Assembly (NCBI GenBank): GCA_028534125.1
Contig: CM052832.1
Span: 10,230,001 to 10,294,000, forward strand
Reading direction: 5' to 3'
Origin: Lama glama
Lineage: Eukaryota
Length of the DNA: 64,000 bases
Shown in pieces: positions 511 through 62,482 of the stretch. The translations under genes and the position numbers were made by a program. The notes beneath the pieces were generated by a model. That model did no database searches, was not told the DNA's origin, and saw only the letters and a list, made by a program, of their open reading frames with translations. How positions within the stretch are numbered: the first letter of the stretch is position 1; every line of letters begins with the position of its first letter.

Positions 511-1053
511 TTGGCAAAGCTATAGACAGCAGTGACTGTAAGCAGCTAGCATATTTAATATGCACACTACACAATATCTTAAAAAGGAGAATTTGGGACT
601 TTTCTTTGTGTTATACATAATAAAAGAATCATGGTCCCTTCAGATAATTTTTGTTTGTATTAACATATGTATTCTTGAATTTCTTCTTCATCCTTATTCT
701 CCTTGACATCAGCCACTCTGACAAATCCTGAAAGCAGGAACATAAAGAATAATATAAAAACAAAGAATTTCCTTAGCAATTACAAATTTAACTCATGGCC
801 TGGAAAAGAAGATTTGCTGGGCTCTAAAGCAAGAAACTATATTCTTTCCTCTCTTTTTCTTGCCCACATCTTATCATTTACCTTCTTAGATATTACATTG
901 TGATTTCTAAGGCCTTCTTTCTCCCTTAGTGACCAACCAGCTACACCAAGGGAACAATCTATTTAAGCTGGGACCAAGGAGGAACTTTCTATGGCTTAGA
1001 TGCTGAAACAAAGGGCTGAGAGAGGTTGAACAATATAAGGGGTCTCTGTCTGT

Positions 1054-4000
1054 CTAGGCTGGGTCCAGCTCTGTGAAAGAATGACAGTTACCTCTGGAGC
1101 AAGGACTAATCCTCATATCTGCACATCCTTTCTTATTTGGAGTTGTAGCCTTTGACTGCTGTGAGTAAGAATCTGAGACTGTTCTTTGTCTCTCAGACAA
1201 GGGTTCCAGGAATGGATGCTTACTCTGTATTCCTAAATTTCCTTCAAAGGAGTTATTTTCCTCCAGGAATTCTCCTTCTATCCAAATCCTGGTAAAGCAG
1301 GTGTCAAAAGGTCTGATGGACTCTCTCCTTCCATATCTCATTACAGAGGCTTTAAGCTCAGAGACCCACTGGTGATAGACAGGGCAGGTCACACATCGAG
1401 AGAAGAACTCCTTAATGTACTGAAAGGAAAGGAAGGTCCATTAGCTCAGGGATTACTTTCTTTCCTCCACTCCACCCCACTCCATTACAACAGTCCACAC
1501 TCAGTATACTCATTCAGGGATGGAGGAATAGAAAGGAGTTATTGATGGCAAAGCAGGCCCCCCAAATCGGTTTTGAGATACAGAGAAACTGGAATGTCTT
1601 AGACTCAGAAAGCACTGGCTGTGGGGAGATGTCAAATGACAGACTGAGACAGAAGTGGTCCTTTGAGAAGGGCTAAATGTTAATGTTTTAATGGTATTGG
1701 GAGTTGCTATGCAAAGTCAGAAAGTTAAGGAATCCAGTCCTGATGTACATGCAAGAATATCTGGGAGGAAACATGAGGTAGGTGAAAAGACTTTCTAGGT
1801 AGAGGGAAAAAAAGGGTTCAAGGAGGAAAAAGAGACAGAGGCAGCAAGGAGAAGGGTAAGGGAGGGCGGCAGGTGGCAGAAATAGTACCACAGGGTCAAA
1901 GTATAACTTAGGTGTCAGTTGATGAACAAGAGAGACAGGTACCTTGAGGGCCTGGTGGTGAGTCTCTGAGGGAGTATGCTTGAAGACACCCTCTGGTATT
2001 TTCTGTAACATTAGCACATGGCACTCAAGGAATCGGACAAAGCCATGTGAACCAAATAGTGAAGCATTGGTTCTTTTCACCAGCTGGCGAGCCCTGGAGA
2101 AGTGGTGCTCAAACAGATTCCACTGCGAGTCCTGGGCAAACCTGGAGGGAAAGAATCACAGCTCTCAGCTCTCTCCCCTGCTTATCAACCATGGCTTTTC
2201 AATAGAGCCGTCACTTCTTTAAGGCCCTATGACCTCCTGGACAGTCAGAATTGTGATTCTGGTAAGTGACCAAGGCTGCTAACTCACATGTAAGGAGACT
2301 AAAAAGGAGACCAACGATATTCAGACTTACCATGTCTTATCTAGCACTTAAATGTAACCCTAAACTTGGCCCTTAAACTATAATCCAAACATGTTAAGGG
2401 ACAAAAAGAACCCTTTCCATAAGATGAGGGGAAAATGGGAGGTGAATGGTCTTTAGAAGTGGGTTAGAGATGTGAAATAGTCCTGCCTGGGAGGGCAAAA
2501 GGCAATAGCTTAAATGACACCATGGTGTCCTCAAATTTCTACCCTTTCCAATAGCCCTAAGTAAGACTCTGGTACCCCACATTACCACATGGCCAGAGAG
2601 GCGTGGACCCCCAACATGACATTGCTCTGAGAAGTTAGAATGCAGCTGTGCTCATAGTGCTGAATGAAACGCAGACATTCCCCAAAGGGCCGACACAGCC
2701 ATCCTGTGGACAGAGAAAAAAAACAGGCCAGTATAAGTTGTCATGTAGGAAGTGTTACAGAAGGTGTGTGGTACAGGGGAGGAGAAACACCCGAAAGGCA
2801 GACACCCCTGAATCACAACTTGGTTCCTAGACTTCAAGGAACCAGCCACGCCCAAGGGACAGGCTCATGACTGCCTTTCTGCTAAACCTAGGGCCCTCCC
2901 TGAGGCCTGAACCCCTTAGGAGCACAGCAGAGCCCTGCACAAGATTTACCTTCTCCGTAGAGCAGCAGATCTAAGCAAGCAGAATAGAAGCAGGCCAGGC
3001 CAAGGACATCATGACCCTGGGAAATGAGCGCCCACTGACTCTCCAGCACATGGACACACAGATCAAATCTGCCGAGAGACAGAGCCACTGGGACCAGCTA
3101 GAGAATGGGGATGATGGTACAGGAGAGGAGGGGATCTTACACCTTCAAAGCAGCTTAATAAGCTCTAGATCTCCTCTCCTTAACTCTACTTATACGGAGA
3201 GCATGTGTGTGGGATCAGACTTGTCTCCAAGCAAAGGAAATGGGAAAATGCCTCTGAGACAATGCCCAGGGTCTTGAGCTATGGCAGTTACCTACCTCCC
3301 CAGAGAAAAGTGGAAAAAAAAGGTTTATGTAGTAACTTAGACTCTGCATTTCCACTCCTGACTCCCCACACTAAAGAAATGCTTCCTGGAGTGAACAGAA
3401 CTATGGAAATGGAACAGCATCCCCGTCTCCACTCCAAACTTCTCTGGAAGATCGTACCCTCCCCTCCCCTCTTAGGCAACAAATACAAAGGACAGAAAGT
3501 GATCTTAATACTTCTTCTTCAGAAATGCAGATCTGAAGAGAACTGAGAGAATTAGATTCTCCAGAGCTGGTTTCTTGAAGTGTCTGCATATCTCATGAGC
3601 TTGAAAACCTAAGGAGGTTAAAGAGTATTGTTTGATCTCTAGTGGTGAACCTGGCCTCTTTAAAAGCCCCAGGCCCACCAGCCCCAGGCCCCATTACCCA
3701 GCTTGATGGAGAAGTCAAGATGGCCGAGGCAGAGCTTGGTGTAGGCCAAGGCCTGCATGAGCTGGGCTGTGGCCAACAATCCCTCCCTGGAGAACCAACA
3801 CAGGGTGCTTTTCTGAATGGCCATCTGCTCACAGTGCAGCCACTTCTCCCTGTCACCCATGTTCTGGGAGAGCTGGGAGAGGGCCACATAGGTAGAGACA
3901 ACCTGTGGGGCAACAAACACGGGCAGAATATTCTGACTGTCCAGTCACGCCACATTTCCACCTCATCCCTTTCCTGCACGAGAGCCCACTGCACGCCTTG

Positions 4001-7000
4001 CTGCTCCCTCAGTGAGCACTCCTGGGGTCTCCACCACTCACCTCATCACCGGTTATGAAAACAGGCTCCTTCTCACCCCTCCACATCTAATTTGATCATT
4101 CTCACTGCCTGTTCTTTAAGCAAACCACTTTCTCTACCTATCCCTCTTCTTTTTCTCCAATCCAAGACTTTCCCCTTCAAAATGCTGGCCAAACTGTACC
4201 TCTTTTATGTTTTCTCTAATTAAGGCCTCTGATTCTTGCTCCTCAGAGGTCTTCAGAACTGCCGCCTAGATCTCTGTCATCAGTTACACACAAATTTGAC
4301 ACCGCTGATGACATTCTTCTTGAAACACTGACTTCATTAGGTTTCCAATAGGATGATAGTATTAAAATATAAGTAGACTCTGTCACTCCTCAGAACCCAC
4401 TGACGGCTTCTCATCTTCTTCAGAGTAAAAACCAAAACCCCTTCAGTGGTCTACAAGGCCTGCACCGTCTGCCACCCCACCCCCAACCCCAGACTCTCTG
4501 ACTCATCTCCTGGCTCTTCTTCTCTCCTCCCTCCTCTCTAGTCACACGAGCCTCCTGCCTGTTCCTCAGACACAGAGGGCATGCCTTGTGCACTCTCTCT
4601 GCCCTCTTCCTGTTCACTCTTCCCCGGATAGCCATATGACTTACTCTCTCATCTCCTTCAGATATTTGCCCAGATGTCACCTGCTCCGGGAAGGCTTTCC
4701 CTACCACCTTATTTAAACTTGTACCCTCCAGCTTCCAGAACTCCATGTCCTCCTGCCTCCACTTAGTTTTCCCTCATTGCATTTATTATCACCTAACACA
4801 CTATATATTTCACTTATCTATTGTCTGTTTCCCTGGAACCAAGGTCAGTCCCTGGCACAGAAGGGGCGTTCATCAAATATTTGTTGATCAGATGGATAAA
4901 AGAGAGATACAGACAGATGGACACTAAAATTAGGAAGACGCATTTCCCTTTCTTCTTTTTACCTAAGTCAGCAACTCCAACCCTTTTTTTAGATCATGGA
5001 CTTCTTTGAGAATCTGATGAAAGCTCTGACCCCTTCTCTACCTCCCATCACTCCCTGGATGCTCTTTTGAACATACACACAAAAGTCGACATTCAGTTCA
5101 GAGTTCACAGATAGCCTCGCACCTGGAAGCCCATCAATAAACTGCAGATTGAGAACCCTGCTCAAACAACACGATCAGCAGTGTCCTGTTAAGTCTGGGT
5201 TACTATGGAACCATGCTTAACCAGGGACTTAGCAGGGTCCTCTCCCTAACATTTTAGGTTTCTGACTGAGGTCCATAGGTAAAACAAGGACTTGCTTACC
5301 TGGGCTTCACTGGCAAACTCCTTGGCTGAATTCTTCTGCATAAGAGTGGCCAGGCAGGCAAACCTGCGGCTGCTGGCTGTGGCCTCCAGGTTGTAGAGCT
5401 GCCAGAGCAAGGAGAGGCAGTGCACCCGCTGCTGCAGGACTGCCAGCTTCTTCTTACTGGTGTGAAGCACAGGTGGTTAGCCTGCCCTTATTCTTCACCA
5501 GTGTCCTCTGTCCCTCCCCACAAGAAATCTGAATCTACCTATCCACAGACTTTCAGACTAGAAAGGTTCCTGGAATCCCACTACTTCTAACCCCATATGC
5601 CTTTTAAATTCATCCCTCTTGACCAGGAAAAAAGTTAAGAGATGTTTTTAAAAAGGTTCACTCTCTGAATTGTTACTTTGGTTGAATATATTTCCTATGA
5701 ATTATTATACCTCAGTAACTAGGGAGCAATTTAATATTATGTATATGTCAGAGAAATAATATTAAATTGCTATTTTATGTGTATATGTACACACAATACA
5801 CATATATGTATCTTTATTTGAAAGAGACAGGATAATACCACACTCCAAAAACAAAGTCCTCATTTTGCTACACTGAATTGGCCGGGAGAGTAAGGTAAAC
5901 GAACTGGAACTGTTATATGCCTGAAAGGAGGAGTCTCTTTATTTCAAATAGGCAACGCCAGGCCGGGCCCTAGATTAGTTCTCTGTGGCCCTAAATGGAA
6001 CCAGGGCAAGTTGACCAGGCTTCTCACTTCTCACTAGTGTTGTTCAAAGGTTGGCTCTGGGAACAGGAACGCCAGTATTTTTCTAGGAATGTTTGGAAAA
6101 TGACACCAAACCAGGTCCAAGGGAAGCTCCTTTTTAGCAGTCGAAGGGCTTGCCTAGCCAATTTTTTGGCCAAGGTGATCTGGCCCATGTTGAAACAGAC
6201 CTGGAGATGGGAAAAAGACAAACAGCGATGCAAATGTGGGAGGAGTGCAAGAGTCTGGATACGACACACTGGCTTTTATTTTGGGAAGTGTACTTGAGGC
6301 CACTGTGGTGCTCGAGTGAGCTGAGTTAGAACAGAGCCTGGCTACACAAACAAGCACCAGTAGGGCCATGAGCAAGCAAAAAAGTGAGAAAACAGAAGCC
6401 ACTCTCTTTTCTCATCTCCCACACATTTGTCAGTGAGCAGGTGAGGAAGTCTGTGATAAAGTGATGCTGCCAGACTCTGATGGGATTGTCATTTGCACAG
6501 AGACTAAGATGTTTCAGATGCAATGAAAGCATCTGAGATATCACCTAATCCTGTATCTCACTTCATAAACAGGTTGTACTGCCATAGTGCATGTAGGGGT
6601 AGGAGCTGAGAAACCACTTTGAAGTTATCATGTACCTTCATGTTCTAAGGCTAAATCAACCAAAAAAGTGATAAAGTCCAAGGTGATTTCAGTACAATCT
6701 TGGGAAGACTGCACAATAATTCTTTTTTTATAAAGAGAAAGAAATAATTATTTCACTTTGCTTCAAAGACCTTTTGTTTGAAATATAAATAATGCAATAC
6801 TGTGGACAACTCTAGTAATCCCTTTGGTGTTTAAAGACATTGTACACATTAGGTTTATTCTCCTAATCAGGGTATCTTGAGGTTTACATTGAAATTAGTT
6901 TTTATTTACTTTTTTTTAATTTTAAAGCTCAGCTCTGTAACAAAACACCCTCATGGTTTTAGGGAGTCTTTATTTATAAATTGATAAATAATTATTCCAA

Positions 7001-10000
7001 CACATTTTGTTCTGTTGGATTTAACAGGAATGAGGCTGGGAGAAGTTGCTGAGTTGTCCTGAGTTATTCATACAGAATAAATACATTTACTCCTATGTGT
7101 TCTTTGAAAATGGAATGTCTCATGGCATGCTTTCCCCAGAATTTCTATTCATTATACAAATCTCATTCTCTGAGGAAATTTGTTATAAATGATATAGAAT
7201 GATATACAAGGCATATTATTTATTTATTTTTAAAGCAAGTAGTAGAATGGAGTATAGAAAGCTCCTATTTGTATATAACAAAGGAAGAGGGGAGATTGTA
7301 TGCATTTATGTATGCTAAGCCCCTCTGGTAGAAAACAAAGATATATAACCTTGAGGAGGGGACACAGCAGCTTAGAGATGGGGTAGGGAGGAGACTTTGA
7401 AATGTATGTTCCTTTTTTCTTTCTAGCTTTACTGAGATATAGCTGACATATAACATTGTTTAAGGGGTACAATGTGAAAATTATTTTTATGTAACTGACA
7501 TAGAACCTTCTGTTAGTTTTAGTAATACAACATAATGATTCAACATTATGTATATGCTGGAAAATTATCACCATAATGAGATTAATTAAATTCTGGCACC
7601 ACACAGTTACATTTTTTTTCTTGTGATGAGAACTTTTAAGATCTACACTCTTAACAACTTTCAAATATACAATACTGAATTGTTAACTACAGTCACATGC
7701 TGTACATCACATCCCCAAAACTTATAACTGGAAGTTTATACCTTCTGACCATCTTCACCCATTTTGTCCACTCCCCCATACTCGAAAATTAGTTTATATA
7801 CACTCTGATGAGAAAAGTACATGAAAAGGTAATTCACAGAAATAAATGACCAATAAACATATAAAAAAAGTACCTTATTAATTAAGAAATATACATTAAA
7901 ATATAATTATCATTTACGGATTAGCAAGTACAAAGAAGACTTATAATATTTGATGTTGGTAGGGATGCGAAGAAATGGGAAGAACTCAAATTGACACAAT
8001 ATTCTGCCAGACAATTTGGCAACATATTTATTAAATATATTCATATCTTCTGCTTTAGCATTTCCACCTCTGGAAATTTCTCTTACAGAAACACTCTCAC
8101 AAGGGAGTAAAGAGATATTTATGAGAATATTCACTGTACCAATGTTTATAATAACCAAAAATTAGAGATAACTTAAATGTGCATGTAGAAAGGAATGATT
8201 AAATAAATTTGACATATGGATACAATGTAGTATTGGCAGCTACAACTACGATTGGATATATGCCAATATGTGAATATGTTCAATCTGCATTATTAGGAAT
8301 AAAAGTCAGCTGCAGAAGAAAGAATACAGAATATGATTCTATTTGTAAAAAATGGAAAACAATAATGATATGACTGTATGTGTACAGCTGGTGGAATTTG
8401 CACTACATTATTAACTACACTAGGGGTGACATGGGATTAGTAAGAGCTCTTTCACTCTACATATAGTTCTGTTTTGAATTTGTATAACCTTTTATCACAT
8501 TTATCATCACACACAAAAAACAAAGAGATTTTAAAAGAAATAACAAAGTAACCCTCAAGGGAAAATAACCCAAACTTCAACGTCATCCCTCATCCTCACC
8601 TCTGATCGAAGACGGCAGAAAGTGGCCTCCTCAAACTGACAGATCTTCACCTTGTGCTTTTTCAAATATGAGAATGCTGAGGGTCGGCCCAGAAGACTGC
8701 TTGCCTTCCTCAAATAAAAGAAGGCCTCCAAACAAGACACGAGATGGAGTAACTGGATTAGGATTCGGATGCTGCTAGGCACGCGCTTAGGGTGAAGGTT
8801 GGATCAAGGTTTCGGCAAGTTTGAACTGGGGCTGGATTTAGTTAGAAATGGGGACTAAATGGACTACGCATGCAGGAGTCAGGGACAGCGCCGACAGCAC
8901 GTGCTGCTCCTTCGCTACCGCATTCCCACTTCATGTTTTCTCCTAGGCCCATTACAGCTCCTTTCTCCCATTTTCCTCCACTTTTCATTCCAGGCTACTT
9001 GACAGTAAGAAATCCTAACAAATTCCCTCAGTCACTTGGCTCAGATCAGGGGCAGAGAGCAGAGCTTGCTCACCATATAATTATCTGACAGGTCCAAGGA
9101 GGCAGCAGCAGCCTCCAGCAGGTAATAAAATGCACACGTGGTTTCTCCAATGACCAAGCAGTGCTGGGTGAGGGGTGAGAGCACTAACTTCAGGATCTCA
9201 TCACAGTGGCAGGGCTTTGTGGTCAACATATCTTTCTCCGGGTTGGTCTGAGCCAGTCTCCGGTTCACTTGATCCAGGAACTCTTCCTCTGTTCTTTGTG
9301 AGAGAAGATGAAGAGCTGAGAGAGGCCACAAAGCAGACACTCTTGCCGGACCATTACCAGGTCTCAAAGCCACTCTGTCCAGGAAGCTTTCCTTTATAAC
9401 TGACTAATTCTATGTCTATCCTTCTCCTCAATCACTCCGTAAGTTTTTGAAAGTCAGGGACCTGATCTATAACGGCAAAGCCCTATTAGGGAGTTTTAAA
9501 AACCCAAAGCCAATCTAAGTATCTCACAAACTAAATGGGGAAATGACCATATCTGAAGAGTAAATTAAACAGTATTCCACGAAAACATAAAAAATGATAC
9601 AAAGCAGTAAATAATACATTTCTCTATTAGCACATTTGAATTCTGTCATGGCACTTTGAATATTATTTTACACAATGTTACCATCTTATCCTACAATAAC
9701 CTTGCCATTCAGGCAGCCAAATTTACCTTTTACAGATGAAGAAATTGAGGCTCAGAGAGTGTAAGTGACTTATATACGACCTCACAGCTACCATGTAGAA
9801 CCAAAACTGGAATTCACCTCTCTAGCTATTAATCCAGTGTACTTTCCACAGGCACCGTGAGTTCAAAAGAGGGCTGATCTCTCTGAGACACAATGATTGA
9901 AAAAAAGTGGGAACTGAGGAGGGCTCTGAAGGATGGTGAACACTCTGATAAGTGGAAGAATGTGGATGCCACTGAGTATTTTTAAAAGGGAGAACTGTGT

Positions 10001-13000
10001 GAGCAAAGATAAAAGGTAAGTGTAGGGGTGATTTGTGTGGAATATAGATTTTTGTTTGAAAACTGTAAGAAATCAGGTTGGATAAATGGGATAGGAAACT
10101 CTAGAGTGGCTGATGGGTTCAAGGTAGCGACATTTAAAATTGATAAGACATTAGAAAGTCAGGTGGTTCATGGTTATGGAAATAAAGTCATTTTAATATC
10201 ATCTGGGTTCAAAAGTAATTGAGAAGGCAAATTTATAGCTGAAAAAAAAATCTGTATGTACAAAGCATTTGAGAGTAATTAAAGTTTTTCTCTAGCTCTA
10301 AGAAATAATTTCCCTACAAAGAATCAAAAATTGCCTTTCTGATTCTCTGTTAGCTTGAATTTGGGGCCAAGCACAAGAGTCACCACTCCTAGATGGTCAG
10401 CTGCCTTCCCTGTCTGCAGGTAAGGTGAATACCCTAGTTAAATGATCATCTGTGGCTCACTTTCTGGCCCCCTTCATGCCCACTCTCAGCATCTCCATCT
10501 ACCTGTAGTGTTCATTTGTGAAGGTCTCCTGACTTCTGGGTGATTTTGTCTGGAACTGAAAACTATCTGTAGGGAAAAAAAGATGATTATCTTTAATTAT
10601 CCATGCCTGGTATTAACTGAGAACATTCAAAATTCCTGACTCTATTTCCTTTGCAGCTTAGTTCATGAGCTAATTGCCTCCCTCATTATAAAAATGGTAA
10701 GTTTGGGTTTACTATTAGCCTTACACACAAAATTAGGGTGCTAATTTTTTTTCTTAAAGGCAACTATTTGTGATTCAAATGGTAACTTCTTTCATTCGCA
10801 AACCTCCCAAACCAATTCCTAATTCTGTTTGCAAAAGAAAAGAATAAAGAATGTGTCCATCTGGCTTGATGGCTAATTCTAATAGTAAAAATCCATGAAT
10901 ATATATGGATCAGGTTTATGAACAGATGGGAGTGAACCACAGAGCCTAAGACCTAGTGAAGAAAATCGTGAAGGCACAAGATGCCACAGTTCACCAGTCA
11001 GTGGGGGTTTTCAGTGGGCCAGTGGGGGTTTTCAGCTTTACCTAGCTGGCCTTAAATACACTTTATCCTCCAGATTTGACTCTTCCTCTGCATCTGTCTT
11101 CTGATCAAAAAGCAAAGACTGGGAATGATGTGGAGATGTTACCTATTAGGACTCAGCAACACAGGAGGTGGGATTGAAAAGAAGTCCAAGAGAACCGTTA
11201 TAGGGAGGACTTGTGTTAAATAAAAGAACTGGTTCTCTGATTATTTAATGATGTCTCATAAGGTAAAGTAAGGCTAAGGTAACTAAGGAAACTGGAACTT
11301 GGCAGCACCACTGCAATGCACAATTCCCAGGGCACCATCCTATCGCAGCCTGTGAACAGCACCCTCCAGGTGTAGGCAGTACCTGTTTTGCATGGCCATG
11401 CACAGAGGCCCTGGGTCTGGGAAGCCTCCTCAGGGTTCGGCTGTGCTGGAAATGTCTTAAGCCTCTCACACCCAGATTGACTAGGCTGTCTAATCTAAAG
11501 CTGACACTGACCTCTTAAAAACAAAAGGTCATATAGGAAATATGAATGATAATGTGATTTCTTCATAACACCAACCGGGACATTCACTGTTGCTTTCCTT
11601 TTTCCCCTCAGAAAGTACAAAAGTGCAAATGCCCACAGAGCTCATCAGCCAGTGACCAATTTCTCCAAGTCACTGGTCCACCTTCATAGAGTCATTAAGA
11701 ATGTTACAGCTAGATGAGGTATTAGGATCATAGGTCAACACCTTCATTTTGGTCCTTTACCACCACCAATTTATCATCTCTCCCATATCCCTCTCCCCTG
11801 CCAACACCAACACCAACTCTTCTTCTGTCAAAGTAGAAAAAGAGACCATTTCGCTGGGTCTTGATAGCTGTCTTCAAATATGAAAGAAGGTACAACTCTG
11901 AAAAAATGCGTGAAAAAGTTGCCAGATGGTAGATTTCACCTGCATGAAAGCAGCTTTCTGACAGCTACTGACAATGAAATGGGCTGTCCTACAACATAAG
12001 CTAACTGAAAATGTTAAAACAAAGAGGAGGAACTCTTACCTGGGATGTGGTAGAAGGATTACAGGTTTGGGAGACTATCTATCCACTAACGAGTCTTCTT
12101 TAAGTAGCTAGCTCTTACTTATCTTTCAAATCTCACTTCTGGCATCATCTCCTTCAGGGGAGAGTCCTATCTTACTCCTTTCTCAGGCTGGGCTAACAGC
12201 CCTTTCTCGATGTACCCAATCCCTACATAGTCTATTTTCATCACCTTTACCATACCATATTGGAATTCTTTATTTATATGTCTGCATCACCCCCAAAAAA
12301 CTGATAATTTTATTTCGTATTCTTACAACAGTATCTGATACACACAAAGACTCCACGTACGTGTACTGAGCTGAATAGTTACTGAGCTGAATAATTATAA
12401 AAACAGTAACGAAAGTGTACTGAGCACTAACCATGTGCTTGGCACTATTCAAAGCCCTTTATAAATTTTAACTCATTTAGTCCTCACGACAATCCTATGA
12501 AATTGGTATTACTATTTTCCTCAATTAATTGAGGTTAAGTAACGTGCCCAAGATTGCCAGCCAAAACAAGTATGATCTCTACAGTTCCTTTTACCTTTGA
12601 GATTATATTTTTCTTATTTCTGGCATTTCAGGGATAAATGGCTCTTTCCACCTATTTTTCTCCCTTAATCTGATTTCACCTTTTAGATGAAGAGCTCCAA
12701 GTACATGAATAAGAAGTGCTACCCACACGTCCCCTGTCTGCCTCCTGGATTTACCTTGGGGAGAAGGCAGCTGCAATTTGTCTATGATCACTCGTGTTAG
12801 TATTGAGCCAGTATCTCTGTAGCTACAGAATCGGGAGGTCCCACTGGAACTCTTAGTAGAACAGATGGCAAAACGGTGGAAGGGGACAAAGTCGCCCCCC
12901 TGACAGCTCCCACAGCGGCAGGCCAAATCTTGAAGAAAGCAGGCACATTCCAGGTGCAGGGCTACCTGCTGTGCCTTGGGCCACAGCTCCCAAGCTGCTT

Positions 13001-16000
13001 CCCGCAGTAGAGGCACTCCAAATTCTAGGTCCTCGGTTTGAAGCAGGGATAGCCCCTCCGGTAGCCGGAGAGGAGAGGCAGCAACTGAAATACAGGAAAA
13101 TCTAAGTGAGAGTCTCACTTAAAGTCCTTTTATGCTACCAGGTAGCAAATTCCCAAGCACATGCTGCTAGTTTATAAGAAAATTTTATTTCTAATTCTTA
13201 CTTTGTATTACTGCTTTCTTTGCATAAAAAATTTTACACCAATCTGAGAGTGGCACTGATCATATTTAATATAAAGTACAAGAGGGAAGAAATAATCAGT
13301 GGTACAGAACTACACTGAATAGATTTCTTAGTTGTTTCTTCTAAGTTGAGCTTTTTTTACTAAAAATTATTGTAAATATCAAATAATCAGAAAGGCTCTG
13401 CCCAAATATAAGGCCCAAACATATTTCAAAGTCAAAGGGAAATTATCTGTGGGTTATATGTGTTCTGAGTAGCTTATGCCACAATTTTATTCTTTCAGGT
13501 GGAGAATTTGAGATTGCAGCTATTTAACGTACATTTTGCGTTATTGATGTCTGTTTCAGTGTCACATGTGTTTAACTTCCTTATAACCTTCTAAAATTAG
13601 AAATAGTTCATCTTTTTTTCTTTTTATTTATCCCAAAAAGCCAATAAAAGACTATGGCAATATTTTTTGAACCAAAAATCAAAACACAAATACTTAACAC
13701 ATGGGGTTAACAAGGAACTAGAATTCTTGAAATTAAGACAACTCTAAAAAACAAAGGCCATTCATTTACTATAACCATGGCTCCTCCATGATTAAAATAA
13801 GCACTTTTCCCAATTTCTTAGACATAAGCTTTAAGAGAGTGGGCCTGTGATCTATGATACGGATGCTCTTTCTGAACACAGATACCCTCACCCAAAGCTC
13901 TCTATTTGGGCCTGAGAACAAGGGAATAAATAGCTCTTCCTCACCTGGCTTTCTCTTCTCTTTGGTTTGTTCAATAATCTCGATAGAGGAAGGCACTAAT
14001 ATTGGCTCAGCAGGAAGCTCTTGGCTCTTGCTGCACCAGCAGAGCACGTGTATGTCCACAAGAGCCCTCAGCACCTGAAGTAGCTTATTTTCACTCCAGC
14101 CAGGCAGGAGGTGCTGCAGTAGATCTATGTGGAAGGAGTGACCGATGACTGCTGCACACTTAACCAGCAACTGTTCCTCTGGGTTCAATTGATCCAGTTG
14201 GTTCACTGCTATTTCTGAAGGAAAAAAAAAAAAGCAATGAATAAGCTTTCTACAAACGTAGAATATATTGTGCTAATAATACATTGTGTTCATTTAAAAA
14301 AAAGGCTTGCTTTTTGCCCACTCCTTTTTCACTCAGCCAAATCTCTTGAAAGAGCCTTATCTCCATGTCCTCTTTTGTCCCCATTCCCCATTTATTATTC
14401 AACCAACAATCAGGTTTTCACCAAAACACTGAAACTGTACTCCTCATGGTCACCAAAACCTTTTGTTGGTAGACCTGAAGTTGTGTTCTGAATCCTGTAC
14501 TAACAATTCTTCCCATTTTCCTCCTACTTTCAACTAAACACTGAGGTTGGCTTCCAGGTCCCAGAATTCAAATAACTGTAAAGATCTGAATTAACTAAAG
14601 TATTTTACTAAATCTCTCCATATTCTGACCAGTAAGCCACCAAGCCCAAAATCTTAGAATAATTCTAAACTTTTTCCTCTCCCTCACAACCACCAGTCAT
14701 CTGCTCATTATCTTTCTAAATAATCTTGAATATGATTCTTCCCAAACAATTTTACTATAAGCAGTCATTTTCACCTGGATCACCATACTACTCTGTTTTG
14801 AACATCTCCAAGTTCCTCTCATTCTTAGCCCTAAGACACACTAACTAGTGGTTGGATTATACGCCTCATGTACAAATATAATCATGCCAGCACCCTTCTT
14901 AAATACTCTTATAACTTATATGGCCTTTCGCAATTTAGCTTTGGCCTTTCATTTAGACCAAGGCTTTGCTGACTGAACGATTCATTTTAGCTTTTTCTTT
15001 CCATGTGGATTAACTTTCTAGCTATTTTCCCAGAACCCTGATAAAATTAGAATGCCAGCTGAGTTACCAGGTAACATTGCTTATGCTAAGAGTGATCCCT
15101 CATAGGAAGTTGAATTTGGACTAGGAGAACTGTGAATAAGGTACAAATACCTGGTGGTAAGCCACAGCTTTGGGCTTCCCTGGGTATAGTAATTCTTGTG
15201 ACAGGTCACACTCCTGGCAGGGCCTGCAGGCTATGCCTAGATGGCTATTATAAGAGATGCCAGTTCCTAGCTGGGAAATGGGGCATCCAAGCACTCATCC
15301 AGGAGAGATGAGTGACCTCATTCCATCACATCTAAGCTATTCCTTGAGGCTCCAGAGATAGCAGTGGAAACTGATGTGGGGATTCCCACTGAAGAAAACC
15401 ACTTGCTGCTGTTCTGCTAGAGTGCTGTTTCCTGACCTGCATGCTTCTAAGTTAGTAAAGCCAATGCTAAGTGTGGCCTATCACGGCTGTAGGTATATAA
15501 CTGTCCAGATGGACCTAAAACCACCAGAGTGAATAGCTTATAATAGCTAACATTCATTGAATATGTATTATGCACCATGATTTATTTGATTTAATCCTCA
15601 ACCAACCCCATGAGGTAGGAACTATCATTAACCCCATTTGAATGATGAGAGGACTAAGACTTAGATCTAAGTTTATATAAGGTTTCACAGCCAGTAAGTG
15701 GAGGAGCCAATGGTACCCAGGTTTTTCTGACCCCAGAGTCCTGGCTCTTAATTACCAAGGTGTTCTGTACTGCTGTTTCATATGCATATCCTATATTCTC
15801 AGCAAGAACATATTTGACTTGAAGGCCTACTTATTCATCATAATTTTCCTCAAGAAGGTTAGCAAAGTACCCTGCCCACCAAATACCTGAATAGAATATT
15901 AAGGAAAAAAAAAAAAAACCCCAAAACCTCCTTGTCTCTAAGAAGAAGATCCTCTCTAATTATATCTACCCAATTCTGATGGCTTCTTTACTCTTTATCT

Positions 16001-19000
16001 CATCATTCATTATAAACTTTCTTTGTACTCTTTTTATGAAATTCCTGCTATGTGCGTAACACTGTCTCCTCACTACCACCATGGATTTTCTTAAACTTCA
16101 GTAACATTGTCTCCCTTGTTCACTGTCTCCTCCAGCACAGGAACATGCACAAAGGGAAACTCAGGACATAATTTTTATTAAATAACTAGAAAACTTTTCC
16201 AGATAATCAGTCAGCCTCAAAGAGAACAGTGGGCTTACTTAAGTAAATCATTACTCAGCTAGCATTACAAGTCTTTAAGAGCTCTTCTGGTAGTGCCAAA
16301 ATTTATTTCTGGAAGGCAGGTTTCTTTTTTAAAGAAATAAAGCTAGCATGATAATGAGAGACCTATACTCAATCAACCACCAAATTACTAAGTGCAATGA
16401 TATCTGTAATTGGTTTACTTGAGGTTTTTAGGGGACCTGCCTTTTAATAATGGTGGGAGAAGCACTGTATCCAAGTTTACATCATCCTTGACTGTACATA
16501 CATAAAGGTCCTGGTCTTCAGAGCTGGCAGGAGAAATACTATACATTGTGGATTTCATGGCATTGGCTGTAGGAAAAGAAGACTACGACTGAGGAAAATG
16601 CCATGCTCAGAGACTGTGGTTTTAAAGATACAAAAATACAAGAATTTAGTCAAGAAACTAAAAGGATTAAGATGAAAGGAGCTATAAGATTTAAAGTGGT
16701 TTACCCACCCATCCTGCCGGTTCTCTAATTTTCTCTTAGAAATGAACAACATTTTCTGTACCACATGGTATCCAACATTCTCACCCTTCCTGTTTACTTT
16801 CCAACAGCCCTTGATTCTGCTACCTCACAGCTCCAGGATGCCTTTCTGGATTTTACACATACTTCTCTCTCTTTCCTCCTCCCTTCTTCCATTCCTCATT
16901 CAGATTTACCACGTCACCCTTCTCATCAGTAACGTGCAATTCTCTATTGGACTCTCAAGTTTATCAATCCTTTCTAGTGGACTCTGATGTTTATAAATCC
17001 TATTTTCCTATCTTCACCTCCTGGGCTGCTCAAAAAGGAACTAAAGTAGATTGACTCAATTACTTTACCTGAGGCAGGGATTTAGTGTTTTCAACATAAC
17101 TACATATTATCTGTATAGTACACTTAGCCAGGAAGGCCTAACCTTGCTTATGATGCCGGCAGGGAATAGACACATGCTTCATAAGGGCCAGGTGATGCCA
17201 TGGTCAAGAATGAACTCCAGCAGCAGGACCAGGGTAGAACCCTGGGGTACTCAGCTTACCTGAGAGGGTCTCCCACTTGCTAGTCTCCACCTCCTCCTTT
17301 TGGAGGTCATGAAAGAGCAATATGTTCTTAGAGAGAAGGTCCTGGCATAAGACCTCACAGTAAAGGGGGTTTCCAAAGCACCTGCGGAGAAGGTAGCTGT
17401 AGAGAGGTAAGTAGGGGATTAAAGATGTCCACTGACTAAAGATGTCCACTTGAAGAAAGCCAAGCATAAGGGTATTTCATACTGAGGAATATTTCTTCTG
17501 TTGTTAAAGTCAGTTCTTGATGATATACACTAACAGAAGGAAGCCTCGGCATAAAAATGTTAAAAAAAGTTTCTGATTGGTTTTGAAATGTATTTTGGCA
17601 GTAACTTTTCTCTTAACTATCTTCCTTCTATTGATGTTAAAAGGAACTAACATCCCCTTGCTAAAGGGCCTGACAAAAACTGGCCTGACCACACATAATG
17701 GACATGTAAAGCAAGTTATCCAGGTCCTAACAGACCTGTGAAAACCTGGATGAACGGCCCAGGGAGATAGTCCTTTACTGGGTACTAGGAGACTGTCTAC
17801 CTTTAAATCTAGTTTTGGGCCTCACCATGGTCGCTAACGTCATTCTCTCCCTCAACTTTGGTGAGACCTGAGCCTTCTCACTTATATTATGGCACCGGCT
17901 CCTCCCTTAATGAAGTGCCCAGCTGGTCCTAGCCACTCACATCTGTAGCTCTTGGGGGATGCTCACCACCCCCAGTTCCCAACATGCCATTCTCAGCAGT
18001 GAGGTCTCTGCCAACTTCAAAATGGGTACAAGGATGGCCTGAGGGCTCTGCAGGAAGTGCTGGGCCCAGCCACACAGGGCGAAGGTGGGGGTCAATGTCA
18101 TCACCATGATGATGGGCACACTGGAGAGCAATGTTCCCAAAAACTCCCAGGAAGCTGCATCCATATACTGGGCCTCGTCAATGAGGAATATCAGCGGTGT
18201 TTCCCTCACTGCCTGGAAATAACAGCAAGGAAACAATGACAACCTCTGATTAGAAATGAAGTCACTTTATTTTGAAATCTACCATAAATTTCCCATCAAC
18301 AATTTTAAGTAAAATGTCAACATAGGCTGGGATTTTCAGAGTAAAATGTATCCTAAGTCCAGGTAATATTTTACTTCATAAATATAAAATATAGCCTGTA
18401 TATCTAATTCCTAAAGAAATCTACCGAGTTTCTTTGAACAAGAAAATACTCTAACTGAAACATGAAATGAGCATCAAAATATTCTCCAAATCAAATATGA
18501 AGCTTTCAAATATTTCATTTTGGCAAAAGCTTCAAACTGTGGGAATTCATAGTATTTTAAACCAGCTTCCAGACCAGGCTGCATATGAGAATCACCTAGG
18601 AGTGCTTGCTAAAACTACCAGTTACCATGCCCCACTCATATACACTTTAAAAAAATACCTCCTTCCCACCAAAAAAAATGAATAAAATTAAAAAAAATCT
18701 AAATATATATATACAAAATTTTTTAAAAAGATAGATACAAACAATGAAGAAATGCCTAAGTCAAGGTATGATAGAGATAGATTAAAATGAGCATAAACTA
18801 TCTGCACATGTTAAGAGTTGACGGCATGTAGCAAAAGTACCCACCTTCTGAAGCACTTGAAAAAAACATGCTTTAACCTTCTTTTGTCTGGCCAGGTCAT
18901 CCATGCGTGAAACTCTGAAGGATAAGGGAAACTGACCGGGAAAATTATTCAGATATTATCTTTCAAAATAACAATCTAATAAAAATATACAGGTTCTCAA

Positions 19001-22000
19001 AAGGGAACAGAAAATGATTCTATTTTGAGTGAGAATAGCTTTCCACAGGACTAGGCATAGGGTTACAAATACTAATCCAACATCCATATACAGTTCAGAG
19101 GGCAGACTGAAAGTCCACTGGTAGTTAGAGAGAGCGCGCTCCTTTCCATACCAGACTCTGGCAAATCTTTAAAGGATCATGACTAAGGAGTAAAGTGACA
19201 GGTGAGACTTAGTAATGTCAATTTGGACAACTCCAGTACCCCCATGCTTCCAAGTATACTATAATGAATGTATGCATGACACTTGTGAGAAAGAATCGCA
19301 GTGGATGTCTCCAACACTGTGTCAGGCTGGCACATGAGCTATCATGGACCTGAGAGCCAAAGTGAGCCTATTACTTGACTGCTTTGGCCAGGGTCCCAGG
19401 TAAGGCCTGGCTTAAGCAAGTGCTATGCTGAAGGATTGGACAAATTTTCATTTTTCCTATTTTTCACTCAATACAACATCCTGCATGCTGGGGTAGATTA
19501 GGAGAAGTGATGGAAGATGAATAAATGGAATTGTGGACCAAGGAATTCTTAGCCTACTCGCTGCTGGAGACCGCATAAATCCTAGACCACTGGAAGCTTT
19601 TGAGATTCAGATGCTAGTTCAAGTGACATACTCCATGGCCTGGGGTAGGGCAGGTAAGGTTAAAAAACAGAACACTGCAATTGACTCAAGAACACGTGGA
19701 TGTAATTGTTGGAGATGCTCGACTGGTCAGTATCACCTGGACAAATTTTAGCACTTTCACATTTACAATGCAATCTCTTATATATTACATCCTTTACAAA
19801 ATTCATGCAAAACCCATATAAAGTACTATCATCATCATTTCACCGTTGAAAAAAAACTGAGGCTCAGAGAGGCTAAGTGATTTGTGCCAAGACATACAGC
19901 TAGCAAGACTGAGAGTCAGTCCTAGAATCCACTCTTCTCAAAAAAGGAAAAAACCTGGGTTTTGGTGTCAAAGGCTTTTCAAATCTTGATCCTGCCACTC
20001 CTAACTATCTGTTCTTAAACGATGCATATACATATGGCCAACAGGTGTTAGATTAGAAGACAATCCTGGGTCCAACTATCCACCAAAAATACAAATAATC
20101 CAGTTCAGAGAGCTACTGCCTTCATTACCTTCACGAAGAAGAGGTCATTAAAAAGACAGTGAAGCGGTTCTTCCACCATTCCATGGAGCTGTTTGAAGAG
20201 GCACTCTTGCCGGTAACAGGCTGGGCATGTATCAATCTCAAAGAAGATAGCCATGAGGGTCTGGATGGCATAGAAGCGCTGCTTGGAATCTGCTTCCTTC
20301 AGCTTCAGTGGCAACACCCTGATGAATGTTACTGTGGTCACTGGGAGTCCCCTGATCCACAGAGAGGTTATTCACTCCACCAGCCCAATGATTCTGAATC
20401 TAACAACACAAGAGTCTCACCAACGAGGCAAAGGAGCCCCAAAACAAATAGGTGCATAGCACAAGTCTTTACCTGTGTCCTTCTTTCTGGGCCAGGAAGT
20501 TTATTTCAGCCAACAGCTGACTTTTTCCATAGCCTTTTCCACCTTCATACAGAACTGCTTGTCCCTTCTTCAGGTGCAAACATCTCTGCTGTGCCATTTG
20601 GAAGGCTTCTAGTTCTTTCTCCCGGTCTGTAGAGAGACAGGGAGCACCTAACACCTGTGGTTTTTAGCAGACACTTATTTATTTGAATTAATTTACAAAG
20701 GTGATTCTCAGAATGGCTTCTCCCCCAATATCTTTGACAGAATCCCATTCTTTGATGAACCTTCACATCTCTTTCTAGAAAATCAACTCTTCATGATACA
20801 GAAATGTGTGTTGGGCTTGAGGGGCTTGCTCCAAAGCCCAAGTAATAACATTTAGAACAGTTAGGCAGCACATGGGCATGGAGACTATCATATCTTCTTA
20901 GCTTTTTGTAAAAATTTCCATTGTAACAATTTAGTGTTTAAAGTCTGTCACCACCACATGAAAATAATGGACGAATAGAAGTAGATAAAACAAAGATCGG
21001 GATATACAGTATGGGTGGAACAGTGTCGGTGCTATCTTTACTATTTCAGAATGAGAAATTTCCCCCTTAAGATGATCAACAACAAGCAGATCAGACCTCA
21101 ATAGCTTAACTCTGACTTACAAAGATTCTTACTAAATGTTGGCACTTCTCAGGCAAAGTGATAGGACCCAACTTGAAATTTAAACATTCAACATGGAAAA
21201 GAAATGGAAAATCCACTTCAAAATTAACAAATTCACTAATAAATCTATTTTTTAATAAAAGTTTAGAAGCATTTAGTCTCGCATTTTGTTTTTGAAATCA
21301 TATGTAACCATCTACAGCTGAAAAAAAATATGATTAAAGGTAAAAAAGAAAACTTACCTAACAATGGGTGATTTTGATTTCTCTCTCTGGCCAAATGTCT
21401 CTTCCCAAACATTCTGGAAAAAAGGACAAAGGGAAACATTTCAATTAAAAATAGATTGGGATGGATAGATAATACATCTCTAAATAGACAGAGGGCAAGT
21501 TGTCCTCATAAACAAGTATTTCAGACAACTAAAGAGGTCCGGAGTTCTGTACAAGAGTTTTTTAAAAAGTGAAAAAAATGTTTTTGGTGGGGGAAGGGGA
21601 GAAAAAGCATTGACTGCTCCAGGCTCAGGAAAGTAAATAGGTTGTGAAGTATACAAAGGAAAAAGAACATCTAGATTAGTGAGCTACTGCGATCCTCTTC
21701 CTGTTGGACAGCAAGAAGCTCACTGACACATAAAACCTGAAGCTCTCAGACACGAAACCCTCCACTTACGTTTCCTATTCTAGCAGGCCAGCACTAGAAG
21801 CATCTTTCTTTCTAATTTCATATAATCAAGCACTGATTATTCCTATGCCCTGCTACTATAAAGAGATGGGAGTGAAGTATCACATAATGACACTCACATA
21901 CATCTTCTATGGCCAAGATATTCATACATCTTCTCTGGGTTGGAGATGTTTTTCATCATTTTCTCTGGGAGCTTCTTGAAGTTATAAGCAGGTAGCATAG

Positions 22001-25000
22001 ATCTTAGATATGTTACCTCATCACAGGACACCAAACCTGGATAAGCAGTTATCATTCTTGCCAAAAGGCTCACTTTTGGGCCAATAACTGTATCAGGGAG
22101 AAGTAAAGAAAAGGATGGAGAATTTTTGAACCAACTCCTCCACCTTCACCCCTCTAACAAGTCACAGAGCTAACAGTCCAATGTCCTATTCTACCTGTAT
22201 ATTCGTGTCTTGCTACTGCCCCAACCATGCCACAGAATACTGGTCCATTGGTGATACTGATGGAAACAAGCCTGGGGATCAGAAAAACAACAGTGAGTAA
22301 ATATGCACTCAGAAGCCTCTAAGTCAGACACTAGACGTGCCACTCTCTGGATCCAGAAGTCTAGTTTAGAGCTCAAAATGGAAAAGGCCAGAAGCTGCTG
22401 TCAGTCTGCATCACGTGATGGGTACACAGTACTGAATATTAGGGAGATAGTCAAAAGGAGCAAAATGGTCCCTCCCACCTACAAAAGCCTAATCCTAATG
22501 AAGTATAGAAAATTTCCATTTTCCTTAGCGCAACTATGATAAGATTGGTTGGAATTTTTCAAATGGCCTTTTTTTTTTCCACTAGAAAACTATGGGGAAA
22601 GTGAATAGATTTGAAAAGTTATTTCTAATGTCAACACTAAGTCAGAGATTTGTTTGCTTGCCATACTTATTCAAGATGAATAAAACCTGTGTCATACATT
22701 TACACAATGCTTTAACATTTATAGAATACTTTAGTATATGCTACTAGTGTGAATATTTGTATCCTTCTTTTACACGTGAGGAAACTAAGGCCACAGAAGA
22801 GAAGTTACTAGCGTATAGCAGAGCTGGTAACGAAACCCAGATCGTCTGTCCTCAAATCCTGTGTGGATATTCCCCCAAAGGAACAGCATATATTACTAAA
22901 GTGATACCATTATAAAAAAAATAAATAAATAAAATTCAGTGATACCATTAAAAAGGCAGTAATACTGAAAAGGAACTTAGAGGCTTTCTGATCCAACTCC
23001 TTATTTTATAGATAAAAAGAGCAGGAGGTCAGTTCAGTGTGAATTCCAGAAAAATTAGTAGGGCTGGGAAAGACCAAAAGCGAAAGCCAAGAAGGAGAGC
23101 ATTAACCAGCTGTGGTCCCTCCTATCTAGGTTATTGCCCCACAATTTGTTTTCCCATGCCGCCCCTCCCCACAGACAGGCAGCCTTCCTTCCACATACAG
23201 ATACATTATTTTTATATTCATTTCCACATCTGCTTGTTCCTTCGCAATGTTCTTGAATCTTGCTATGCATATTGTGTCCCTCCCCTTCTCCTACCCCACT
23301 GGATGGAAACTTGCATTCATTTCCCCTGGGTATCTGGTACACAGTTCTGTATCCAGTGATTCTTAACAGACTTTGTTTTCTGACTATCCTCAGCATGTTC
23401 CCTCTCTCCCCTTTGGGCAGATTCCAGATGCCCTCAACCCCTGCTACTTGCTACTGCCTCCTTCCTTGCCTGAAGAGCCCCCTGGGCCTGAGAAGTTCCT
23501 CTCTGCCCCACCTTCCTCCTCACTTGGTCTCAGCAAGATTCTCCCAGCAGAAGCTGAAGATGCTGAAGGAGCTCTCCAGGGCATGTGCACACTCATCTGG
23601 CTTCTTATCCCCAGGAAGTCCGAAAACACAGAGGAACATGTAGCCCTGAAATAGATGACAGAGAAAGAAAACGGAACTTGATCTGGGGAAGAAATATGGC
23701 TTGCGTCCACTGCACCAATTTCCCTTAGTGAACCCAGACTCCTTCCAGATTTCTTCCTAGCTGGTTTTCTGTTAGGAATGTAGGGTTCTATAAGATTCAT
23801 GAAATGGGCACGCTAGGCCACAGCAACACGGACATTTTTTTAAAAAGAAGAAGAAATAAAATCTTAATTTAGCTATTTAAAGAACTGAAATTCAAAACAT
23901 GAGAAAAACTGATGTCAAGAACTTTTCAAAAATTCAGTTTTTAGTGTCCAACTTAAGCTAACTCTATCTGCTTCTATTTTCTTCACCTAGAATGTCAAAT
24001 ATTACAATACTGCTCTTTTTCAAGCTCCTAAATTTATGAGAAAGATTTGATTACATATACTTTACTAATAGAGCCATAAAAACATTCTTTATGCCTTCAG
24101 AAGGATTTTTTTTCAACAACGATAGATTTAAAAAGGATATGGAGAGTAACCCTTAGTTACCTTGAAAATTAAATTAACTAGAACATCTCTTTCCTTAACT
24201 ATTACTAGTTGAAGTTTTAATGTAATATAGCTTGCTACAAAATAAGCAGCCGAGGATCTGACTTATGCCTGTGTTATGTGAGAAATAAACTGGTGATACA
24301 AGACTATTATTCCTCACTCACCTTTAATGCTGATGTGTCAAATTCCTTTGTACTTACTTTCTCAAACATAAAGATCCGGCTCAGCTGGCCACCCCCTTTC
24401 TCTATCACTGTGGAGATGTATAAGGCAGCCTCCTGGATAAGATGACACAAATGCAACATCCATTCTGTCTTGCGGAGCTCTAGGCTGACCAAAACCGTAG
24501 TCACGGTACGGAATTCAGATATATACTCCATAGGCTGCCCTTCATCAATCTACAAAGACACAGTGAGTTACCTTGTCTGTATCTTCAACTTTCACTATCA
24601 TGCTTAGGCATTTAAATTCAATATTCCATGGTAAACATGAGAAAATAATTTATGGATGTTAGACAAAAAACTTAAAACTCAGGTTCAAGCAGTATGGAAG
24701 ATATACCAACCAGTACACTTGGAGTTAAAACTGTTTGACTTTAAAACTAATTCACTGATGAAATTTGCTATGCTTTTATATTTCCTTTCTAAGACTTAGT
24801 TTGGTATGTCCAATTCTCCTAGCCATTAAATCGCTCACTAAGGGATTCACATAGATTCAGATACATGTAATCAACACATATTTACCAAGCATATACTCTA
24901 TACCTGTTTATAGTGTACCAGCTTCTAGAGGGACAAACATAAACAAATATGGCTTCTGCTTTCTAGGACTGAGAAATCTAAACTTGTAAGACATGTCACT

Positions 25001-34935: not shown

Positions 34936-35170
34936 GGCGGCGACGGGGCTGCGCGCCGAGCTACCCGAAACAGGGTTCCTCCGCGAACCAGCCAATCCTC
35001 AACGACAGCCCTGATGGGTCCCTCCCACCAGCCAATCAGTGCGGGCTAGCTTGGAGCAGCGTCAATCGAAAGCCGCGGCGGGCTCTGCGCCACCTGTTTC
35101 CCAGCGCTTTGGCCCCTCGCGCTGGCTTCCGGGGAGGGGACGAGCAGAAGGTCGGCAGGACAGCGCGTTT
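34600..35170 (-). promoter_or_regulatory. CpG-island promoter/exon 1 of the ADCY10-like gene with two CCAAT boxes
   Basis: Locally CpG-dense. CAGCCAATC occurs twice (CCAAT at 34992-34996 and 35032-35036), just upstream of the ATG at 34935. Confidence 0.75.
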
Positions 35171-62250: not shown

Positions 62251-62482
62251 CACCTTGGAACATAGGGTTTTTTCCTCTTTCTTTTTCTTGCCTCAGAAGA
62301 GTTTTGCATTACTTCCCAGAGTTTGAATGAACTCACTTTCCGCAATGAACGGTGGGGAAAAAATTGGTAAATGGGTGGTCAGGGTAGTCCGAATGTAATA
62401 TATTCAGGTTGCGTGCATTTTTCCTTCTTTCCCCTTCTCATAGCTGAAGAAACAAGTTAAATTCTGGGAATAGCGACTCAGT

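Follow-up and report, generated by a model that had tools for sequence, protein, structure and literature searches.

The ADCY10-like locus

The window analysed here, a 64,000-nucleotide stretch of the llama (Lama glama) genome (contig CM052832.1, positions 10,230,001 to 10,294,000, assembly GCA_028534125.1), carries on its minus strand an intact ADCY10-like gene, a paralog of ADCY10, the gene for the sperm enzyme soluble adenylyl cyclase (sAC). Mapping the dromedary ADCY10-like X3 record (P0005) onto the window gave 32 coding exons (34935-660) with a coding sequence of 4,776 nucleotides and 1,591 residues (Table 1). The frame has no internal stop and 35 substitutions relative to P0005 over 1,591 residues, and the alpaca record P0277 mismatches the window protein at 5 aligned positions. 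All 31 acceptor sites read AG, with GT donors in 30 introns and a GC donor in one; this sole non-GT donor ends exon 18 (window 16441, minus strand). Stops, frameshifts and lost splice sites are absent and evolution is not neutral (see below): the gene is intact and not a pseudogene. Since the STAND motifs described below all lie in this one spliced 32-exon frame without an internal stop, they are not chance occurrences.

The gene belongs by descent to the sAC/ADCY10 family: two class III cyclase domains in tandem (C1-C2), with no membrane segments, precede a P-loop NTPase, and the protein nests among vertebrate sACs. A one-exon protein search returned 119 proteins, nearly all labelled "adenylate cyclase type 10(-like)", with camels as top matches. 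On another contig of the same genome, a second match to exon 5 (51% identity) was found, and its exon retrieves canonical ADCY10 records. Like full-length sAC (sACfl), the window protein has the order C1-C2, P-loop NTPase, helical domain 1 (HD1), winged-helix domain (WHD), Cys/His cluster and TPR solenoid; exon 12 sits in the same place, and alpaca ADCY10-like and camel ADCY10 are 36% identical over 1,554 columns. The initial annotation had outlined a feature at 1943-20626, which is indeed part of one gene but covers only exons 13-30, leaving outside both the cyclase exons (34935-21358) and the last coding exons (1419-1224 and 727-660). The interest lies more in the pseudo-cyclase outside that range than in the STAND module within it.

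Table 1. Coordinates of the ADCY10-like gene, its functional residues and its upstream neighbour in the window
Feature	Positions	Strand	Basis
NFYA exon, upstream neighbour outside the gene, synteny marker	41937..42218	-	Pfam CBFB_NFYA, E 2.6e-14
CpG island at exon 1, likely promoter	34500..35500	.	Two 500-nucleotide bins: GC 0.65, 0.50; CpG observed/expected 0.88, 0.76
Exons 1-11, tandem pseudo-cyclase C1-C2, residues 1-470	21898..34935	-	E 1e-133 to human sAC crystal constructs; exon table
His50 for metal-binding Asp47 of human sAC	34786..34788	-	Alignment
Asn102 for metal-binding Asp99	30083..30085	-	Alignment
Thr407 (= Thr405), kept	22198-22196	-	Alignment
Ser414 for Asn412	22068..22070	-	Alignment
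Arg418 (= Arg416), kept	22058-22056	-	Alignment
Exon 12, 56 nucleotides	21358..21413	-	Gene model
Exon 13, end of hhGRExE (D490-R491) and Walker A (G518-K524-S525; 20543-20520)	20473..20626	-	Gene model
Walker B LIFLIDEAQ (D645, E646)	18168..18194	-	Motif position
Thr674 at sensor-1 Arg position	18090..18092	-	Residue counts vs distant relatives
GxP motif GNP, residues 732-734, HD1	17366..17374	-	Motif position, alignment
Val925 at winged-helix (MHD-type) His position	13014..13016	-	Residue counts vs distant relatives
H945-C948-C959-C962 cluster, common to ADCY10	12903..12956	-	In region matching the reported sAC haem domain (PMC3475452)
Exons 22-30, TPR-like alpha-solenoid, residues about 1033-1504	1943..9293	-	AlphaFold2 of ortholog P0059; Foldseek; weak Pfam TPR_2
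Exons 31-32, last helix and poorly conserved tail, stop codon 662-660	660..1419 (1419-1224, 727-660)	-	Gene model, alignment

Orthologs supply evidence of transcription. Two Logan-derived ortholog proteins, the pinniped-like P0034 and the dolphin-like P0011, cross 11 exon junctions on a 2,292-nucleotide contig and 7 on 2,564 nucleotides, respectively; so many junctions on such short contigs identify them as spliced RNA. RNA-labelled runs marked "reproductive system" (share 0.31-0.43) were rejected as tissue evidence, as they cover more words than the exon content of about 22% can supply and may reflect host DNA or unspliced RNA. In ADCY10, skipping of exon 12 produces the short form sACt (PMC12802110). 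The same event here would yield a 497-residue form comprising only the pseudo-cyclase, a possible counterpart of sACt.

The pseudo-cyclase active site

Residues 13-470 of the window protein match human sAC crystal constructs, which allowed the active site to be compared residue by residue, with roles taken from PMC12867704 (Table 1 of that article) and PMC12250328. Counts refer to 45 placental rows, the window protein and 44 records, one per species, drawn from the 119 search hits; extra isoforms and short fragments were left out, and denominators are rows with a letter at the position. Both metal-binding aspartates are replaced, Asp47 by His50 (40/40 rows) and Asp99 by Asn102 (41/41), whereas ADCY10 has Asp at the two positions in 22/22 and 25/25 rows. 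Two further replacements are uniform or nearly so: Thr100 (A97T, 43/43) and Ser414 (N412S, 44/45). In the same pocket, residues on the phosphate and adenine sides persist: the phosphate loop G53/F54/T55 is kept (38/38 each), as are K147 (equivalent to K144; 40/41), T407 (T405; 43/45), V408 (V406; all 45) and R418 (R416; 42/45). Compared with ADCY10, the differences fixed or nearly fixed in ADCY10-like are D47H, D99N, N412S, K334R/Q, R176Q and A97T. Koala also has His and Asn at the two metal positions, while echidna and platypus have His together with Gly or Arg.

Because both aspartates of the two-metal mechanism, D47 and D99, are replaced, ADCY10-like has likely lost cyclase activity and would make no cyclic AMP (cAMP). 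At the level of sequence, this agrees with the dead cyclase of the initial annotation. The bicarbonate-sensing residues of mammalian sAC are replaced as well (K95 by N in 43/43 rows; R176 by Q in 38 and R in 6 of 44). K95N was nevertheless ruled out as a sign of a dead cyclase, because active fish and turtle enzymes also carry Asn there.

An alternative hypothesis is that C1-C2 is not dead but has changed its chemistry, with His50, Asn102, Thr100 and Ser414 forming a site for another reaction or substrate, such as a metal-free or Zn-type nucleotide cyclase or hydrolase. In favour of this, the replacements are no less fixed than catalytic residues, one of them is a His, the equivalents of K144, T405 and R416 are kept, and two acidic residues persist in the turtle members of the clade. 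However, no therian row with letters retains either of the two-metal carboxylates, position 99 is Gly or Arg in monotremes, and we know of no class III cyclase that works without both metal carboxylates. We therefore consider a changed chemistry improbable.

Variation was also seen in a C2 loop (residues 340-343; window 24358-23640, minus strand), where most placentals have FEKG, ADCY10 and the dromedary record have FDKG and whales have SET[GS]; Tyr343 is found in the window protein and alpaca where others have Cys. In turtle members P0125, P0128 and P0136, N412 is changed to K, K and Q, and the C2 loop is changed too.

The STAND NTPase module

Much of the initial description of this module stands. 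The Walker A (GGKGYGKS), Walker B (LIFLIDEAQ) and GNP motifs lie on the minus strand exactly where they had been placed, the numbering of K524 is correct, and the effector-NTPase-superhelix layout of STAND proteins is recovered by Pfam, AlphaFold2 models and Foldseek. Walker A residues G518, G523, K524 and S525 and Walker B residues D645 and E646 are invariant in all 45 placental rows, so the loss of these motifs in orthologs, which had been raised as evidence that would count against the proposal of the initial annotation, is not found. ADCY10 keeps the same motifs in 24-25 of 25 rows; macaque ADCY10 (P0264), with a Walker B of IIHEAQ, is the only one of the 25 without the Asp. The GxP motif (G732 in 43/45, P734 in 44/45) is followed in the models by a winged-helix domain.

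The hhGRExE and GxP motifs flank the adenine in STAND proteins. The variant PLLDREKE reported for the first of these is real but exists only after splicing, as exon 12 (base 21358) contributes one base of the Asp490 codon and exon 13 (20626-20625) the other two. Arg491 is present in 45/45 placental rows, but the preceding Gly has become Asp490 in 43/44; Gly is kept in koala, monotremes, turtles and loris. A second placental-specific change, V733N (17371-17369, minus strand), accompanies G490D (21358/20626), with koala, monotremes and turtles retaining G and V. Relative to ADCY10, placental ADCY10-like thus differs in both adenine-side motifs (G490D and I733N), and G490D and V733N together may alter base preference. 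The reading of GNP against GIP as a restored switch was rejected: Asn is common among distant relatives (41/83), but koala, monotremes and turtles have Val.

These distant relatives are 83 proteins of 1,150-1,510 residues, a subset of 101 lower-ranked representatives, and are probably prokaryotic. Such cyclase-STAND-TPR proteins, together with PH0952 (6MFV), AfsR (8K60) and MalT, have the same NTPase-HD1-WHD-TPR layout and can be aligned with ADCY10-like at hhGR, Walker A, Walker B and GxP. Among the 83, D47 (81), D99 (82), N412 (83), R416 (83), the sensor-1 Arg (79) and the WHD His (72) are kept; the window protein has R416 only. At the sensor-1 position, placental rows have Thr (44) or Met (1) and never Arg, and at the winged-helix His position they have Val (36), Met (6), Leu (2) or Ala (1) and never His. 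The STAND ATPase is therefore "intact" in its Walker motifs, GxP motif and layout but not in its switch residues: G490D had been noticed in the initial annotation, whereas replacement of the sensor-1 Arg and the winged-helix His had gone unremarked. ADCY10 also lacks both (0/25 each). As gar, catshark and several relatives of 1,700-1,900 residues retain the sensor-1 Arg, it was lost before the duplication that gave rise to ADCY10-like.

Structural comparison places the module among STAND proteins without singling them out. Pfam finds Guanylate_cyc twice and AAA_16 in ADCY10-like, and no NB-ARC or NACHT row appeared at E up to 1 in six orthologs (AAA_16/AAA_22 only), although weak matches can be filtered out. 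An Atlas search gave AAA_16-TPR clusters only, and the Walker B exon by itself matched no PDB sequence. A first AlphaFold2 model, of equid ortholog P0036 (residues about 397-1591), had a mean pLDDT of 62, with the NTPase core mostly at 80-90; because P0036 carries a low-confidence isoform-specific stretch, a second model was made from another ortholog (see below). Foldseek ranked STAND proteins first for the equid model (6MFV at E 2e-7, Avs3, CED-4, the wheat resistosome, Apaf-1 and the MalT complex 8BOB) and then ORC/Cdc6. By VIA-align of the long model, ORC/Cdc6 chains tied with STANDs (Z 12-14), and the two groups were not separated. What the module has in common with NLRs, Apaf-1/CED-4 and Avs3 is the core fold of STAND proteins, matched by Foldseek at E 1e-6 to 1e-4 with 10-12% identity. 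ADCY10-like differs from them in its Pfam AAA_16 assignment, an all-helical TPR-like sensor instead of LRR or WD40, a cyclase-fold effector in place of a death-fold, TIR or CC one, and the lack of the MHD His and sensor-1 Arg.

The selected function proposed in the initial annotation was an NLR/Apaf-like switch, in which a ligand bound by the TPR region would cause ADP/ATP exchange and ring formation and so expose the pseudo-cyclase for docking, in the way that Apaf-1 exposes its CARD. The domain order effector-NTPase-HD1-WHD-TPR in the models, the STAND proteins at the top of the Foldseek list and the invariant Walker residues speak for such a switch. An isolated sAC fragment, 897-1057, is reported to form a large oligomer (PMC3475452). 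In NLRs, however, the sensor-1 Arg and winged-helix His hold the ATP gamma-phosphate and ADP, respectively (PMC8813719), and the residues that hold these two states are those replaced here: Arg in 0/45 vs 79/83 rows, His in 0/45 vs 72/83 and the hhGR Gly changed to Asp in 43/44 vs Gly in 82/83. Yet some plant TNLs lack the Arg, and because the TNL RPP1 oligomerises without it (PMC8813719), the switch hypothesis stays alive. In ADCY10, whose module is the same, ten nucleotides or nucleosides gave no response specific to the full-length protein, though the authors caution that the purified full-length sAC may have lacked a partner (PMC12802110). The scores of ORC/Cdc6, as high as those of STANDs, further weaken the structural argument. 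Given that the module is common to ADCY10, that the switch residues are absent in both paralogs and that the strongest constraint falls on the pseudo-cyclase, the proposed switch is not supported as the selected function, and we regard it as unlikely.

The C-terminal solenoid

The winged-helix-like segment and the long TPR-like helical region predicted in the initial annotation are seen in the AlphaFold2 models of both orthologs. In the second, of the C-terminal 768 residues of bat ortholog P0059 (pLDDT 75, pTM 0.75), the chain runs from a winged helix through a Cys/His cluster into a long solenoid of helices. The solenoid gave weak Foldseek matches to the TPR proteins APC5, LGN/Pins, Tom70/71 and Rap (best E 1e-4) and a weak Pfam match to TPR_2. 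Residues H945, C948, C959, C962 and H971 (12956-12903, minus strand) and C1061, C1063 and H1077 (9211-9203, minus strand) are conserved in at least 95% of rows in both paralogs and form a possible metal site. The first of these groups overlaps the reported sAC haem domain, where CxxC mutation left the haem spectra unchanged (PMC3475452).

Rates of evolution

Protein-level rates, rather than the ratio of nonsynonymous to synonymous rates (dN/dS), were compared between ADCY10-like and ADCY10 on a fixed tree of 25 matched lineages (same species or same group); values in brackets are the range of 12 resamplings. Tree lengths for ADCY10-like and ADCY10 were, respectively, 0.92 (0.70-1.11) and 1.07 (0.76-1.22) for C1, 0.97 (0.83-1.17) and 1.04 (0.82-1.32) for C2, 1.92 (1.74-2.23) and 2.37 (2.06-2.82) for the NTPase, 2.64 and 2.70 for HD1-WHD and 1.78 (1.60-1.95) and 3.11 (2.86-3.42) for the C-terminal solenoid. 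Mean pair identities (C1 0.92/0.91; solenoid 0.86/0.78) agree. The pseudo-cyclase is therefore the slowest part of the protein and evolves no faster than the cyclase of the active enzyme; the solenoid changes clearly more slowly than its ADCY10 counterpart. At the protein level, neutral evolution of the NTPase, another outcome that had been named as telling against that proposal of the initial annotation, is likewise not what the tree lengths give. HD1-WHD, where ring contacts would form in a STAND switch, is the fastest of the five folded domains, a further point against such a switch.

These rates also bear on the hypothesis that the locus is a decaying pseudogene whose frame was kept by chance. 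Farrell (2008) wrote of a second sAC locus that it "appears to be a pseudogene" (PMC2532759), and truncated or split records are found in Pan, Rhinopithecus, marmots and porpoises. In llama, by contrast, decay is contradicted by 32 of 32 exons in frame; C1 and C2 identity is 86-96% in most placental rows and 73-78% in koala, and ADCY10-like is no faster than ADCY10 in any of the five domains. Decay is thus hardly credible here, and the published statement is contradicted for most mammals.

Age and probable losses

In a midpoint-rooted IQ-TREE tree of 25 rows, in which lungfish forms a long branch, a single clade (100/100) unites the window protein with those of elephant, koala, echidna and platypus and with three from turtles. 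This clade is sister to the active amniote sACs (89/86), and amphibian, gar, coelacanth, catshark and lungfish proteins fall outside the amniote branch (100/100). The topology therefore dates the sAC duplication to the amniote stem, and ADCY10-like has formed a clade of its own since the early amniotes. The search hits included no member of this clade from crocodilians, birds or squamates. Ten near-identical ADCY10-like records on one contig of goshawk (P0357, P0505-P0513) suggest a tandem expansion in a bird.

Full-length records exist for macaques, baboon, Aotus, squirrels and koala; dog, rabbit, macaque and livestock have the gene. Pan has members of 727-925 residues among the matches listed (15 of 20 in the cluster), and only pieces were found in Rhinopithecus (594 and 462 residues), marmots (402 and 666-740) and porpoises (668-686). 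From these annotations, repeated loss in mammals seems probable, and the gene appears dispensable in several lineages.

A putative non-catalytic scaffold

We propose that ADCY10-like acts as a non-catalytic pseudo-enzyme scaffold with a repurposed nucleotide pocket, a hypothesis that we would back about as readily as doubt. The C1-C2 fold would enclose a pocket without metal ligands but with phosphate and adenine contacts, likely to bind a nucleotide or a partner without turnover; this pocket is probably metal-free and could accept ATP, cAMP or a related ligand. The nucleotide likely bound by the P-loop would have a structural or autoinhibitory role like that in ADCY10 and would not work a two-state ADP/ATP switch; the TPR solenoid likely holds a partner protein. 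Full-length sAC depends on partners, either SLC9C1/TMEM217 or Hsp70 (PMC12802110). We speculate that ADCY10-like works within complexes of the sAC type, where it might share these partners or compete for them; as full-length sAC needs them, this would be the simplest route to a function.

Several observations weigh against this hypothesis. Invariant Walker A and B motifs fit an active ATPase equally well. The K334 position varies (R 36, Q 9 of 45 placental rows; Arg in the window protein), and position 99 is variable outside therians, with G and R in monotremes and D, D and E in turtles. Both metal positions are acidic in all three turtle members (E/D, E/D and E/E), so these members may not be fully dead and may show an intermediate stage. 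About half of the columns are invariant (49% in C1, 46% in C2), so a single invariant pocket residue is weak evidence for a ligand, and fold stability alone could account for much of the pocket conservation. The constraint argument is further limited by its use of protein-level rates and not dN/dS.

A bolder version would have the His/Asn-rebuilt site sense ATP or cAMP without metal and the protein regulate ADCY10 by co-assembly with it or its partners through the STAND-TPR scaffold. ADCY10-like would then be an overlooked eleventh adenylyl-cyclase gene in most mammals, as old as amniotes and lost in humans, chimpanzees and mice, whose sAC biology and inhibitor pharmacology would differ from those of dogs, rabbits, macaques and livestock. 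We put this version forward with considerable doubt. The probability not taken up by the explanations weighed in this text is left to functions that we cannot name.

Already known are the sAC-STAND layout and a RefSeq entry under an automatic name that implies activity. We found no publication that describes the intact protein, how old it is or its dead active site, in a search that left subscription journals and supplements (e.g., those of gene-loss screens) outside its reach. The ADCY10P1 literature among the matches listed consisted, judged by title, of human RNA or association studies only, and the available part of PMC6660944 mentions no paralog. The sAC field sees a single gene and a pseudogene because human and mouse, its usual models, lack a working copy. 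A dead-cyclase paralog under enzyme-level constraint is a natural experiment on the role of the C-terminal 1,100 residues of sAC, since everything selected in it must be non-catalytic; the study PMC12802110 found no regulator. In dog, rabbit, macaque and livestock, the paralog may also be relevant to work with sAC antibodies, inhibitors and contraceptive tests.

Neighboring genes

As the initial annotation anticipated, the TREM/TREML cluster lies off the left edge of the window, where V-domain exons of TREML1 and TREM2 were found about 8.6 and 15 kb away on the strand opposite to ADCY10-like. NFYA lies upstream on the same strand as ADCY10-like. The human pseudogene ADCY10P1 occupies the same place between NFYA and TREML1/TREM2. 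By this synteny and by chimpanzee ADCY10-like fragments with 70-86% identity to the window protein, the camelid gene is likely the ortholog of ADCY10P1; the likeness runs through synteny and chimpanzee, not human, sequence, and the camelid gene differs in having a whole reading frame. Human ADCY10P1 lies near NFYA and has been described as an enhancer RNA (PMC9107640).

Proximity to the TREM genes also prompted the suggestion of an immune role, for which the distances above and the frequency of immune receptors among STAND proteins could be cited. However, ADCY10-like and the TREM genes are convergently oriented, with their tails toward each other, and the promoter-like CpG island is on the NFYA side, 35 kb from the TREM-side edge. 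No LRR, WD40, TIR or death-fold part was found in the Pfam search or the C-terminal model, and the gene is reported as a pseudogene or absent in human and mouse, where the TREM genes persist. Nothing beyond proximity was found for the link, and an immune role is very improbable.

To the left of the window, at distances of about 28 and 49 kb, the TREM cluster has two further Ig V-type exons (L005:1330-1953 and L007:531-920, plus strand). At the other end, a second GC-rich stretch (window 60000-62400) is likely the promoter region of NFYA, which in human is shared with OARD1.

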